From: Thermoanaerobaculia bacterium
GTDB lineage: Bacteria; Acidobacteriota; Thermoanaerobaculia; UBA5066
DNA: 64,000 nt
Direction of reading: 5' to 3'
NCBI GenBank assembly: GCA_963719225.1
Contig: CAVRAY010000001.1
Location: forward strand, 3,072,001 to 3,136,000
The notes beneath the pieces were generated by a model. It searched no databases. It was not told the origin of the DNA and saw nothing but the letters and a program-made list of their open reading frames with translations. Positions 2,795 through 6,363 of this stretch are shown in pieces. Each line of letters starts with the position of its first letter. Within the stretch, counting starts at the first letter, position 1. Made by a program: the position numbers and the translations under genes.

Positions 2795-2824
2795 TTGACC
2801 CTTGCCGAAAAGCGGGCGTAGCAT
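2795..2824 (+). promoter_or_regulatory. Candidate sigma70-type promoter (TTGACC-N18-TAGCAT) for the sigma-fragment/TPR operon
   Basis: TTGACC at 2795-2800 and TAGCAT at 2819-2824; purine-rich GAAGGGGAAAG before ATG 2852. Confidence 0.4.
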
Positions 2825-2851: not shown

Positions 2852-3340
2852 ATGTCCCGGAACTTCGACGAGATCGTGTCCGACGAGGTACTGAAGCAGC
2901 GCTCCCGTTTTGCGCCTGCCGAGGTTCCTGTCCCGGCGCGGCCCGTGTGGAACTGGGAAGAGCTGAACGCGAAGTTCCGCCCCCGCCTCATTGCCGCCGG
3001 CGTCATCCGTTTCGGCCTCTCGCAGGATGACTGCGAGGGCGCGGCGCAGACCGTCTTTCTCAAGGTGCTCGCGATGAATCCGCGCGTGCGCGACCCGAAG
3101 GCGTACCTGCGCGCGGCGTTCCTGAACCAGTGCAACAACATCCTGCAGGCGCGCGAGAGGCGCGGCGTCGGGGATTCCGACTCGGGGGTCGTGTTGCGCG
3201 AGCTCAGGCTCGCGGAATCGGGAGAGATCGAGCTTCGGGCCGAGACCGCGCCCGTTTCCGACCGGACCGGCCCGATGCCGGCGGTCCGGCGCACGCTGTG
3301 GGATCGCATTCGCGCCGGACTGGCGACGGTGACGCCGTGA
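2852..3340 (+). CDS. ECF/sigma-70 region-2-like protein with no recognisable region 4
   Basis: [39 protein letters not shown]...[23 protein letters not shown] matches the ECF sigma2 pattern. The C-terminal part shows no HTH. The stop overlaps the next start (GTGA). Confidence 0.7.
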
Positions 3341-4590
3341 AGCACGACGACGTCTTCGACGCAATCCTCGAGGCGGAGCTCGTGCCAGAGCTGCCGCCTC
3401 AAGCCATGGGCCGTACGCTCCCCTTCGTAAGGGCGAACGCCCACGCCTCCGTCGAAGACATCTACCGGCTCTCGCAGGACGCGGAGAAGCCCTCCGAGCT
3501 GATCCTGAAGGCTGCGCGATCCGGCGCCGACGAGCTCGCCGCCACCCTGCGGTCGCTGGACGGCAAGCCCTACCGCGGCTTCGCGCTGCTCTATGCGGCG
3601 CAGAAGGCATTCGCGCTCGTTCCCGAGGATCCGGCCCGCGCAAATCTGGTTGCCGACCTTCTCTTCGAGGAGGGTGCGACGCTGGCGGCAGCGGTTCCCG
3701 ATTCCCGTGCATCGACGCCAGCACCTCGCCAGGCAGTCCAGGCAGAGGCCACCCTCCTGAGAGCGTATACGTTCCTTCAATCCAGTGAGCCTCTCCTCGC
3801 TCGGGCGGCCGTGACCCCGGCTCGCGAATATTTCAAAGAATCGGGCGACCTCGGTTTTGGCTCGGCCCTCTGCGATTACTACGAGGGTCAAGCCGCGAGC
3901 TACTCTCGCGACTACGAATCTGCTGAACGCCTCCTAAACAGCGCTCTCGGGACCTTTTCGGAGTTCGGCCAGGATCATCTCCACGCACGTGCTGAAGTCG
4001 CGCTGGGAACTCTCTTTCTCCACCGCGGCGATAACGATCGAGCACTTCAGTATCTCGAGCGGGCCGCGGCACGTTTCGACGCGGAACAGGATGCGCAGTT
4101 CCTCGTCCCGACGCTCAACAACCGTGCTCAGTGCCTCATGCGCCTCGAGCGGTTCGATGAGGCGCGGGCGACCCTGGCGAAGTCCATGAACCTCTGCCTG
4201 CGCTTCGGCTTTCGCTCGCATCTCCTCTTCGTACGGAACGGTCTCGCAGAACTCGACGTGCGCCGCGGTCAGTTCAAGCGCGCTCTGCGCACCTTCGGCG
4301 AAATCGTCAAGGAGGTCACGGCCCCGATTGACGTCGCGTTTGCTCGCCTCTATATCGCCGAGTGCCACGCCCGTCTCGGCAACCTTGGACCAATGGCGAC
4401 GGAAATCGAGGCCCTTCGGCGCGAGCGTCAGGAGAATCCCTTCGCTCCCTCACCCGCTTTCGGCGAACTCTTCGTCTGCCTCGACCAGGGAATGCTCGAC
4501 GCAGACCTCATCGCGCACGTCCGGGAGTACTTGCAGGACCAAGAGAACGGCACGAAGCGCGCATACCTTCCTCTGAGGCTCGTCGGCTAG
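3337..4590 (+). CDS. Tetratricopeptide-repeat (TPR) protein, cytoplasmic, about 417 aa
   Basis: Start GTG 3337 overlaps the upstream TGA. TPR-like helices such as [27 protein letters not shown] and [25 protein letters not shown]. No signal peptide. Confidence 0.85.
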
Positions 4591-4620
4591 ACACAGCTGC
4601 CAACCTGTTGCGAATTTACT

Positions 4621-4649
4621 CGGCCGCCTTCGGGCGGCCGATGTTTTTT
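4621..4649 (+). terminator. Intrinsic terminator after the TPR gene
   Basis: CGGCCGCC-TTCG-GGCGGCCG perfect stem with a UUCG tetraloop, followed by ATGTTTTTT. Confidence 0.8.
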
Positions 4650-4698
4650 CGGGCGTCGGGGGTCAAAAGGGCCTTTGTCCCCTGTCCTAGTAGGTGAA

Positions 4699-4723
4699 GG
4701 GCAGGTGAAACGAACACCTGCCC
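4699..4723. promoter_or_regulatory. Perfect inverted repeat upstream of the small peptide gene (operator or 5' hairpin)
   Basis: GGGCAGGTG-N7-CACCTGCCC, 11 nt upstream of the AGGAGG RBS. Confidence 0.45.
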
Positions 4724-4744
4724 GGCTTCGGGGTAGGAGGACGC

Positions 4745-4900
4745 ATGGACTTTCTTCTTATGTTTTTTGAGCTTTTTCCAGGTTTTCTGATGGGTGAATC
4801 GGGGCTTGCCGGCGGACGCCCCAGAGGCGTATCGATCAGCTCGACCCCCATCGGGATCAGTTCGACGCCCATCGGAATCAGCTCGACGCCGATTGGCTGA
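4745..4900 (+). CDS. 51-aa precursor-like peptide with 3x ISSTPIG C-terminal repeats
   Basis: AGGAGG at 4735-4740, then ATG 4745. Translation MDFLLMFFELFPGFLMGESGLAGGRPRGVS-ISSTPIG-ISSTPIG-ISSTPIG*. The repeat copies differ only at third codon positions. Below the ORF-track length cutoff. Confidence 0.85.
   Translation: MDFLLMFFELFPGFLMGESGLAGGRPRGVSISSTPIGISSTPIGISSTPIG
4835..4897 (+). repeat. 3 x 21-nt coding tandem repeat (ISSTPIG)
   Basis: ATCAGCTCGACCCCCATCGGG / ATCAGTTCGACGCCCATCGGA / ATCAGCTCGACGCCGATTGGC. Confidence 0.95.
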
Positions 4901-4927
4901 AGGAGCCCTGGGTAGAAGGAATTTGGA

Positions 4928-4948
4928 TGACGCCGCGCGGCGGCGTCA
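4928..4948 (+). terminator. Hairpin downstream of the peptide gene
   Basis: TGACGCCGC-GCG-GCGGCGTCA perfect 9-bp stem; no long U tract. Confidence 0.45.
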
Positions 4949-4982
4949 CGGGAATGTTTCGCCCGCAGGGAGGAGTATCGAC

Positions 4983-5393
4983 ATGCTGAGAAGCCATCTG
5001 CCGAAGGAAGAGCCGGCTGGCGACGTCACGCTGTCGTTACAGCTCCACGCGCCGCAGCCGGTCGTCGTGTCGAGCGCGACGGAACCAGGAAAGGTCCTCC
5101 TCCACCTCGAAATCCGAAACAAGTCGAATCAAGCGTGGGAGGGATCCACGGAAGCGGGTCCCCTCCTCGAGATGGTCCTCCTCGACTCGGAGGGCCACGA
5201 GCGCTCCCGGCAGACGCGCCAGTGCCGGATGCTCGCCTATCCCACCCGCCTGGAGCCCGGGCGGGGATTCAACCTCCCCCTCTTCTTCACCCTGCCCGGG
5301 CTCTCCTCTTCCGGCGAAGACTTCCGCATCGAGATTCGCCTCGTGCCCGGCCGCGAAGTCCTCACCGGCCACCTGCGCGTCGAGCCGCACTGA
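4983..5393 (+). CDS. Small Ig-like beta-sandwich protein, possibly BsuPI (intracellular proteinase inhibitor)-like
   Basis: GGAGGAG RBS before ATG 4983. Pattern VLLHLEIRNKSNQ...LEMVLLDSEGHER...TRLEPG resembles PF12690-type domains (judged by eye). Confidence 0.55.
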   Translation: MLRSHLPKEEPAGDVTLSLQLHAPQPVVVSSATEPGKVLLHLEIRNKSNQAWEGSTEAGPLLEMVLLDSEGHERSRQTRQCRMLAYPTRLEPGRGFNLPLFFTLPGLSSSGEDFRIEIRLVPGREVLTGHLRVEPH

Positions 5394-5454
5394 CGGCTGC
5401 GGGGCTTCGCCCCGTTTGACCTCCTTCCACCCTTTTCGGCATGATCCCCGCGCG

Positions 5455-6363
5455 GTGATCCCAGCGAAGAGTTCCGTTTCGTCTCTCATCGGCATCCCGA
5501 CGCAGCGTCCGACCGCCTGGTGGCTCGAGACGCTTCGAAAGCGCGCCGAAAAGATGTACGGCGAGCACCTGGACCTCTCGCAGCCCGTCGAGTTCGAGTC
5601 CGAGGAAGAGCGCCTCGCCTGCATCAAGTTCTTCAACGCGGCATACCGCGCCGAGGAATCCGGAAAGGCCGGAGCGCACCGGCTCGCCGATGAAGTCCGC
5701 GCGTGGGATCCGGACCTCGCCGAATGCCTCGTCCTGTACGGCAACGAGGAAGGCTGGCACCGCGAGCTCCTCGACGAGTTCCTCGGACACATCGGTGGCG
5801 GCGTGACCGCCATGGGCCGGATGACGAGGACGTTCTACGGCGTCTACGCGAAGGCCGAGCGCATGGAATCGATCATGCTCACGAACCTCATGTTCGAGAC
5901 GATCGGCGCCACGACGTACCGGCTGTCGCTCCGCCGCGTGAAACAGCCGCTCGCGCGGCAGGTGCTCACGATCCTCACGCGCGACGAGTCGTTCCACGTG
6001 CCGCTCAACGTGCACTTCATCCGCGAGATCCTCAAGCACTACCCCGAGCGCAGCCGCGCGCGCCTGAAGGCCATCTACCAGATGGTCTTCCACTCGCTCG
6101 TTCTCCTGTCCCTCGGAAGCCGCAAGGTCGCGCAGGGCTTCGACCGGATCTCGTGGAAGGAGCTGACGTCCGCCTACGTCGAGAACCTCGGACGTCTCTT
6201 CGTGAACGAGCCCGACCTCGACTTCGCGCCGCCGCGCCACCTGCTCGCGGCCTTCGGCATGTCGCGCGGCAGCCTGACGAACACCGGCGGCGTCGACGCG
6301 ATCAGCGTCGCGGCGGCCGAGGCGGCCGCGCGGCGCGAAGACGTCAGCGTGACGCCGCTCTAG
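5455..6363 (+). CDS. Ferritin-like di-iron domain protein
   Basis: Di-iron ligand pattern AEESG...EEGWH...FETIG...DESFH. Probable start is GTG 5455, after a TTGACC-N18-CATGAT promoter; the ORF track starts at TTG 5416. Confidence 0.75.
   Translation: MIPAKSSVSSLIGIPTQRPTAWWLETLRKRAEKMYGEHLDLSQPVEFESEEERLACIKFFNAAYRAEESGKAGAHRLADEVRAWDPDLAECLVLYGNEEGWHRELLDEFLGHIGGGVTAMGRMTRTFYGVYAKAERMESIMLTNLMFETIGATTYRLSLRRVKQPLARQVLTILTRDESFHVPLNVHFIREILKHYPERSRARLKAIYQMVFHSLVLLSLGSRKVAQGFDRISWKELTSAYVENLGRLFVNEPDLDFAPPRHLLAAFGMSRGSLTNTGGVDAISVAAAEAAARREDVSVTPL

Follow-up and report, generated by a model that had tools for sequence, protein, structure and literature searches.

A truncated ECF sigma factor, a soluble TPR receptor and a multi-copy propeptide as a candidate peptide-gated anti-sigma switch in Thermoanaerobaculia

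Cytoplasmic peptide receptors have been described for Bacillota, and the signals of most anti-sigma factors that control sigma factors of the extracytoplasmic function (ECF) type are unknown. The subject here is a small gene cassette at positions 2852–4948 of a 64 000-nucleotide stretch of DNA from a Thermoanaerobaculia bacterium (GenBank assembly GCA_963719225.1, contig CAVRAY010000001.1, positions 3,072,001 to 3,136,000; 'the window' denotes this whole stretch), in which a truncated ECF sigma factor, a soluble tetratricopeptide repeat (TPR) protein and a propeptide of 51 amino acids (aa) are encoded in succession. Among described systems, the RRNPP signature comprises a propeptide of 10–100 aa and a receptor of 250–500 aa with TPRs, the two genes being adjacent at −60 to 400 bp (PMC10075063). 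Class I anti-sigma factors hold their sigma factor at two places, helix 1 binding sigma4 and helix 4 binding sigma2 (PMC7406223), and in PhyR a sigma-like domain titrates an anti-sigma factor without initiating transcription (PMC8103513).

Comparison of the window locus with its relatives points to a real, conserved four-gene circuit and provides good evidence for a self-encoded peptide ligand. The preferred reading, with a probability of about 0.55, is a peptide-gated anti-sigma switch in which the sigma2 half is a decoy and a full-length paralogous sigma factor transcribes the peptide promoter. The groove of the TPR protein would take up the heptapeptide at the C-terminus of the neighbouring propeptide, and the peptide-bound protein would let go of its sigma partner, here a sigma2 half. 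The released sigma2 would act as a PhyR-like decoy and free a paralogous sigma, and this full-length protein, encoded elsewhere in the genome, would transcribe the peptide promoter. The parts of the proposal differ in strength: peptide–receptor binding is highly probable, it is probable that a family sigma mediates feedback (of either sign) at the peptide promoter, and receptor–sigma2 binding via a segment retained behind the lost zinc domain is somewhat favoured. The odds are even for processing, export and return of the peptide, and the sigma2 half is taken as a decoy rather than a direct initiator with some hesitation.

The receptor and its candidate peptide ligand

The cassette lies on the plus strand, divergent from a gene whose translation reads as pyruvate phosphate dikinase (PPDK)-like, and has the following elements.

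2795–2824, plus strand: sigma70-type promoter TTGACC-18-TAGCAT, before the sigma-TPR operon
2852–3340, plus strand: truncated ECF sigma, 162 aa; region 2 at about residues 33–105, disordered tail, remnant of the last region-4 helix at 149–158
3337–4590, plus strand: soluble TPR receptor/anti-sigma without zinc knuckle, 417 aa, assigned from TPR families, model and fold search
4108–4122, plus strand: receptor codons 258–262, with peptide-covarying position 258 one helical turn before the nearly invariant N262
4620–4651, plus strand: intrinsic terminator (9-bp hairpin and T-tract) closing the sigma-TPR operon, conserved in clade I
4658–4687, plus strand: ECF-type promoter GGTCAAA-N15-TGTCC, preceding the peptide operon and present in 13 of 13 complete truncated loci
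4699–4723, plus strand: hairpin in the 5′ leader of the peptide mRNA, with a similar stem in eight folded leaders of clade I or the sister genus
4735–4740, plus strand: ribosome-binding site AGGAGG, upstream of the peptide open reading frame (ORF)
4745–4900, plus strand: 51-aa propeptide with Phe-rich acidic leader, basic/Gly linker and three ISSTPIG units at 4835–4897
4983–5393, plus strand: 136-aa cytoplasmic protein resembling BsuPI (intracellular proteinase inhibitor), an atlas lead, downstream of the peptide

The stop codon TGA of the 162-aa ORF overlaps the GTG start of the 417-aa ORF (GTGA), and sigma and receptor are translationally coupled; 154 bp separate the receptor gene from the peptide gene. 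The original prediction, made from the letters of the window, had described a sigma-region-2-like ORF coupled in this way to a cytoplasmic TPR protein, then a terminator and a 51-aa ORF with its own ribosome-binding site and three identical C-terminal heptapeptides, and all of this was borne out. The highest 19-residue hydropathy in the receptor is 1.16, and it therefore lacks a membrane helix. Two further claims need qualification: the N-terminus of the propeptide is hydrophobic as described, and also acidic, but carries no classical Sec signal, and the sigma-linked output is supported, but through a truncated ECF sigma with a remnant of its last region-4 helix rather than a protein that originally had one domain. 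The ECF-type promoter and the fourth conserved gene (4983–5393) are additions to that first description.

The family was surveyed through 90 distinct sigmas, and the 61 loci with a whole receptor and at least 330 nucleotides downstream are termed complete; within the genus the cassette forms three clades. A small ORF recurring behind homologous receptors, the check proposed at the outset, was found: one with a strong ribosome site, ending in P-[IVL]-x(1-2), stands behind the receptor in 58 of the 61 complete loci, compared with 8 of the 4879 long frames remaining in this genome. Two of the three misses have small ORFs that end in S/T-I-G-G as read from the DNA, and the third is a frameshifted receptor with the peptide present. 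Endings of this kind, without proline, occur in clade II peptides of L181 and L186, one of which has two units. The peptides span 17 to ~56 aa and carry one to four cores. Pairwise, the three ISSTPIG units of the window differ at 11 synonymous and no non-synonymous sites, and across 23 multi-copy peptide genes the units differ by 154 synonymous versus 23 non-synonymous changes; the repeats are under purifying selection.

The receptor matches TPR families only (TPR_12, E 5e-16), with no helix-turn-helix (HTH) family at E 0.1 and no CHAT domain. Its model is a TPR superhelix (predicted local distance difference test, pLDDT, 85), for which the best fold matches are LGN/Pins–peptide complexes (LGN, Z 24.1), with Rap-phi105 (Z 20.9) and NprR (Z 20.8) below them. 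Rap chains align over receptor residues 44–417 at 9–14% identity. Given this order of matches, the fold fits a peptide groove and is no evidence of RRNPP descent. Residues N262, R300, E342 and E183, which the model places on alternate helices, are retained by at least 93% of 66 receptors.

Covariation of receptor and peptide, which had likewise been proposed as a check, was found at receptor position 258 in 31 of 32 clade I pairs: Met258 occurs with Gly before the peptide proline in 20 of 21, and Ala, Gly or Pro258 with a larger residue there in 11 of 11. The window pair combines Pro258 with Thr. Position 258 is the best of 308 variable columns, with one misfit (the next best has three), and on a tree built without the N262 helix the peptide trait changes six times, an equally good column being found for 1 of 400 simulated traits. 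This covariation supports direct contact between receptor and peptide. Whole-segment correlations of receptor and peptide identity (0.38–0.59) were set aside as linkage, and a complex prediction for receptor 36–417 with peptide 22–51 (score 0.01, mark 0.32) is not evidence either way.

A homologue search with the TPR protein returned 177 proteins, of which 120 were listed, at 55–86% identity; those bearing organism names are Thermoanaerobaculia or Acidobacteriota, in agreement with the first guess of a probable Acidobacterium as host. The receptor profile matches 40 of 251 genomes of the class at E 1e-15, including 13 of 13 in the genus and 21 of 22 in the family. A wider profile matches 15 of 301 genomes of the phylum, with only weak matches (E 1e-21 to 1e-29) outside the order. 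At E 1e-30 it picks up 452 representatives, many being unrelated long TPR proteins. A scan of genome contigs with the single protein gave four loci only, and no relative of the cassette was found in viral contigs. The unpublished genome G004 was counted only in range tallies and one miss. Clade I loci occur in 26 of 29 genus genomes, 19 of these 26 being truncated, and an intact full cassette is present in the same genome as the window, at C1:1806037-1808174.

This paralogous cassette (G000 C1:1806037-1808486; L079:3037-5487) encodes a full ECF sigma, a TPR protein with a zinc-binding anti-sigma (ZAS) domain and a 41-aa peptide ending in NAGPIGA; after its peptide, at C1:1808627, the promoter motif occurs a second time, with no peptide gene following. 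Elsewhere (L002:6075-7463, minus strand; L014; L040–L042; L071; L101), a convergent second module of sigma and ZAS-TPR protein, without a peptide of its own, faces the BsuPI-like gene. The TPR part of this module groups with first-module receptors on the tree and its sigma is divergent, which suggests gene conversion and two outputs for one peptide. Long receptors of 740–1216 aa, with two or three TPR-unit matches behind one ZAS domain, lie near clade II cassettes and have no peptide gene of their own (L080:7878-10295, L083:4145-6421, L084, L101; P0124–P0127), and frameshifted family receptors in L035, L099 and L111 are broken copies or assembly errors.

The truncated sigma factor and its promoters

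Most loci, and the paralogue, encode full sigmas with regions 2 and 4, and the receptors of relatives begin, directly behind the sigma gene, with the zinc motif H-x3/4-C-x2-C. A ZAS profile of these matches ChrR (E 6e-7) and DdvA (E 2e-4), as well as RsiW and 3hug chain B (presumably RslA), and zf-HC2 was found in 16 of 39. Since the receptors of relatives start in this way, the TPR protein is, as judged from sequence, a soluble anti-sigma by descent. For the window sigma, region 2 matches the family profile at E 3e-34, and Pfam Sigma70_r2 matches its relatives; its model superposes on sigmaE region 2 with a root-mean-square deviation of 2.1 over 75 columns, a weak match (E 0.43), the fold search giving no match under E 0.001 and the sigma profile no PDB sequence. 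Region 4, present in L002 and the paralogue, is absent from the window sigma except for the degenerate remnant of its last helix, and the window receptor is without the H-x3-C-x2-C zinc domain.

The two losses coincide throughout the family. Region 4 is missing from 30 sigmas, 16 of the tailed type seen in the window (including three first labelled 'other') and 14 ending right after region 2; the ZAS domain is absent with all 30 and present with 57 of 57 full sigmas, a pattern in keeping with the helix 1–sigma4 and helix 4–sigma2 contacts of class I anti-sigmas (PMC7406223). One further full sigma, in L035, has a frameshift in the zinc-motif region, and of two sigmas with a partial deletion of region 4, one is accompanied by a ZAS domain and the other is not. 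The ratio of non-synonymous to synonymous substitution rates (dN/dS) in region 2 is 0.053 for the window's type and 0.110 for other truncated sigmas, against 0.104 for full ones; in the tail it is 0.43. The retained FDAILE segment of the receptor shows no amino-acid change across 13 truncated loci of type A. Because region 2 and the FDAILE segment are so constrained, the truncation appears not to be decay. The FDAILE segment aligns with the part of ChrR that follows its zinc-binding helices, and, most simply read, a pair of interacting halves disappeared jointly while the sigma2/helix-4 half remained, the helix assignment coming from an ungapped alignment. On the receptor tree, a quick one, type A occurs in scattered places (seven rows, seven changes), and L200 has a full sigma and ZAS domain together with the same ISSTPIG core; the blocks therefore appear to have been exchanged by recombination.

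Within region 2, the last acid of the DAED-like motif, which binds RNA polymerase (PMC8999054), is D in 58 of 58 full sigmas and in 7 of 30 truncated ones, the window sigma having G. The NPRVRDP loop, which concerns the −10 element, is invariant. The window sigma is probably unable to read a −35 element itself.

In clade I the terminator separates the receptor from the peptide gene. Peptide promoters read GGTCAAA-N15-TGTC[CT] in clade I, have the same −35 with N14 in clade II, and read GGTTGAA-N16-[CT]GTCT in clade III. The −35 element follows the sigma, since the region-4 helix is KTVWKR in clades I and II, which share GGTCAAA, and PAVWKR in clade III, which has GGTTGAA. The −35 is intact in all 13 complete truncated loci, which calls for a region 4 from another source. 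In a search of the genome with a region-4 profile, no separate family region-4 protein came to light (paralogue E 1.5e-34, next E 0.46; an unrelated donor is possible). Of the 19 genus genomes that have a truncated copy, 18 also encode a full clade II sigma sharing this helix and −35, and the exception is a 74% complete genome. Two sister-genus genomes without a clade II sigma keep their own sigma whole (two cases only).

The sigma–receptor operon is preceded by a sigma70-type site in 35 of the 44 clade I loci whose upstream DNA was long enough, and in 0 of 44 loci of clades II and III. Since none of 88 loci showed a family ECF promoter ahead of the sigma gene, any feedback would pass via the peptide operon alone. 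The peptide promoter of the window is the top site of its genome, scoring 34.0 versus 16.8 for the next, the site itself being in the training set. Five sites score at least 15, compared with 7–14 in shuffles, and only the window site is high; loosening the pattern brings in two GGGGGTCAAA sites at the paralogous locus together with chance matches. Genome scans with the strict or relaxed promoter pattern thus found no wider regulon.

The fourth gene, with an atlas score of 0.91 to a BsuPI cluster (a lead only), is the sole constant passenger of clade I cassettes; its product is 80–96% identical across genus loci and 46–48% in the sister genus. No terminator was called between it and the peptide gene, and the two are likely co-transcribed. 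A weakly AurF-like, ferritin-like gene at 5455–6363 of the window, with its own sigma70-like site at 5416–5445, lies behind the cassette in 14 of the 33 loci that leave room for it, mostly truncated-sigma loci. In L001 (3063-3389, minus strand) the divergent PPDK-like gene ahead of the cassette is reduced to a 108-aa remnant, which suggests that the locus moved together with part of its flank. No Rfam family matched the leader hairpin of the peptide mRNA; in clade III and distant loci, the leaders of the peptide mRNA share a recurring GAGCGCTC motif that lies within a possible hairpin (L020, L089, L091–L098, L023–L033, L108–L115). Contigs of relatives in three RNA libraries cover the sigma, peptide and BsuPI-like genes, one spanning 4496–5267; mostly <95% alike, they show neither strand nor level and were not used.

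Alternative readings of the locus

Several observations weigh against the peptide-gated switch. The rule at position 258 fails in clade II, and sign tests on independent pairs are not significant (p 0.25 in clade I, with three changes in the same direction, none opposite and one unchanged; 0.6 overall). The peptide position was picked after looking at four, of which −2, −3 and +1 gave no clear column, and the L038 receptor differs from that of L037 at only 25 positions, yet is paired with a different core. The receptor fold is closer to eukaryotic LGN than to Rap, and only 9 of 25 more distant loci gave a peptide by the same rule. A clade II sigma occurs in 28 of 29 genus genomes, so its co-occurrence with truncated copies does not discriminate.

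Export and import raise further difficulties. A basic N-terminus is lacking in 72 of 77 short propeptides, that of the window included, whose leader has no Lys or Arg in residues 2–6 and a longest uncharged run of 6 (by simple rules, not SignalP). These short leaders are hydrophobic, mostly acidic and modestly amphipathic, features that we take to be reminiscent of AgrD and SHP leaders. Neither OppC_N nor AgrB was found in the 97% complete genome, the two SBP_bac_5 matches that were read sit in a cytoplasmic kinase fusion, and four OPT-family transporter genes are present with nothing linking them to the cassette. A C39 peptidase is encoded elsewhere in the genome. The fusion (L208:2266-7917, minus strand; G000 C1:2094095-2095186) is a cytoplasmic protein of 1883 aa with peptide-binding-protein folds, ~18 kb from the paralogous cassette, in which Ser/Thr kinase-like, ATPase-like and TPR-like parts (names given by reading the sequence) accompany two SBP_bac_5 domains; a second similar frame exists.

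The same receptor–peptide pair might thus work inside the cell. The short leaders could keep the peptide there: an amphipathic leader would park the unprocessed peptide on the inner membrane face, and its tail would act back on the receptor as a timer or as a sensor of membrane state or proteolysis, with no signal passing between cells. The leaders without Sec features, the missing OppC and AgrB, the likeness of the co-transcribed gene to a cytoplasmic protease inhibitor and mismatched pairs such as L038 would all suit such an arrangement, which is nevertheless judged unlikely. Cores diversify between species with matching change in the receptor, form tandem arrays of 1 to 4 copies and have been reshuffled relative to the sigma block, as in Rap-Phr (PMC5199041). 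Moreover, seven of the nine peptides of distant loci are 77–99 aa long with classical Sec-type leaders; found next to cytoplasmic receptors, such leaders speak for signalling through the outside in this family. What was first proposed as analogous peptide signalling accordingly keeps its conserved pair, its clade I covariation and its multi-copy cores, but has neither a Sec-like leader nor a recognised OppC or AgrB.

The fate of the released sigma2 half divides the switch from a second alternative, in which it still initiates, melting the −10 element as another protein supplies the −35 contact, after the precedent of SigO-RsoA in Bacillus subtilis (PMC8103513). Truncated loci keep the clade I spacer of 15 (clade II has 14) and the −10 context in 13 of 13 complete cases, E remains the third residue of the DAED-like motif in every truncated sigma, the NPRVRDP loop is invariant, and sigma2 dN/dS (0.05–0.11) indicates constraint no weaker than in full sigmas (0.10). 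Spacer, −10 context and invariant E fit a sigma2 that still reads DNA, and so count against the decoy. The decoy is nonetheless favoured because no family region-4 protein turned up in the genome, a clade II sigma is present and 23 of 30 truncated sigmas have lost the last DAED acid; the shortest truncated type, without any region-4 remnant, still keeps the −35 as well, and direct initiation is considered quite improbable. Very improbable is a multi-core precursor of a peptide made on ribosomes and modified after translation (RiPP; TigB/TvgA-like) under ECF control, with its enzyme encoded elsewhere and the TPR protein sensing something else. A leader with repeated cores, a weak match of 1 of 21 peptides to NCBIfam RiPP_TigB (E 0.003) and the ferritin-like gene speak for it. 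That gene, however, is absent in 19 of 33 loci and has its own promoter-like site; no modifying enzyme was recognised among recurring neighbour ORFs (loci of 2–13 kb, read rather than Pfam-scanned), many members are single-core peptides of 17–21 aa, and receptor covariation would go unexplained. It is scarcely credible that the truncated copy is a relic, in decay or without output, which linkage alone preserves as a signal producer or sink: loss of region 4 and zinc knuckle, the fast-evolving tail and the frameshifted family copies would be expected of it, but truncated forms of at least two types make up 19 of 26 clade I loci in the genus, with strong purifying selection on sigma2 and an unchanged FDAILE in the 13 type A receptors.

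A more ambitious form of the peptide-gated switch would be cell-to-cell peptide signalling in a diderm phylum through ECF sigma release, with species-specific types set by the pocket residue, a relay of half sigma and half anti-sigma that evolved repeatedly, joint loss of the two parts making a peptide-gated decoy of one channel, and several channels on one promoter class; this is possible but doubtful. Were it so, an uncultured soil lineage would have a means of communication and ECF sigmas a new mode of control, several peptide channels converging on one promoter class via a shared paralogous sigma. The candidate ligand, pocket residue, promoter and output operon are all readable from the DNA, and four short genes would be enough to reconstruct the circuit in a laboratory host. 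The model in which sigma and anti-sigma bind at two interfaces is put to a natural test by the matched loss of sigma4 and zinc knuckle, and the conservation of a protein with sigma2 alone makes one ask what purpose half a sigma serves.

Comparison with known systems

Literature searches found no description of a peptide cassette of half sigma and half anti-sigma, consistent with the original view that the arrangement was undescribed, although most subscription papers and supplements were outside their reach. No such group appears in the available text of the ECF reclassification (PMC7826278; supplementary tables not covered). The class I ZAS anti-sigmas ChrR, RsiW and RslA resemble the relatives of the receptor in the H-x3/4-C-x2-C domain behind the sigma gene. 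The sensor here differs in being a soluble TPR superhelix paired with a self-encoded peptide, and the window proteins are without zinc knuckle and sigma region 4. DdvA-DdvS of Myxococcus xanthus likewise has an ECF sigma held by a ZAS anti-sigma with TPRs (PMC11506125); DdvA, however, is transmembrane, with a periplasmic TPR-CHAT part and an unknown signal, whereas the window receptor is soluble, is without CHAT and has its ligand candidate next door.

The proposed decoy finds its parallel in PhyR-NepR-EcfG, where a non-initiating sigma-like domain titrates the anti-sigma, and RsoA is a stand-alone sigma2 (PMC8103513). Unlike PhyR, the cassette involves neither a receiver domain nor phosphorylation, and its half sigma derives from the same family as the full sigma that it would serve; unlike SigO-RsoA, it has no neighbouring region-4 protein.

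With RRNPP(A) systems (Rap-Phr, NprR-NprX, PlcR-PapR, Rgg-SHP, AimR-AimP) the cassette shares a cytoplasmic TPR receptor and an adjacent propeptide with a C-terminal core (PMC10075063, PMC9765709), as well as intragenic duplication of the core and diversity of alleles (PMC10075063, PMC9765709, PMC5199041). The likeness first drawn to these systems holds for a 51-aa propeptide, a 417-aa TPR receptor and 154 bp between them, and Rap and NprR are among the fold matches. It ends at the phylum, Acidobacteriota rather than Bacillota; at the output, an ECF sigma/anti-sigma pair (with ZAS in relatives) in place of an HTH domain; and at transport, there being no classical Sec leader (SHP and PrgQ are exceptions among RRNPP) and no OppC. 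Because the Sec, HTH and Opp features fail, the cassette is not filed under RRNPP; it is not a member of that family, but likely works like one.

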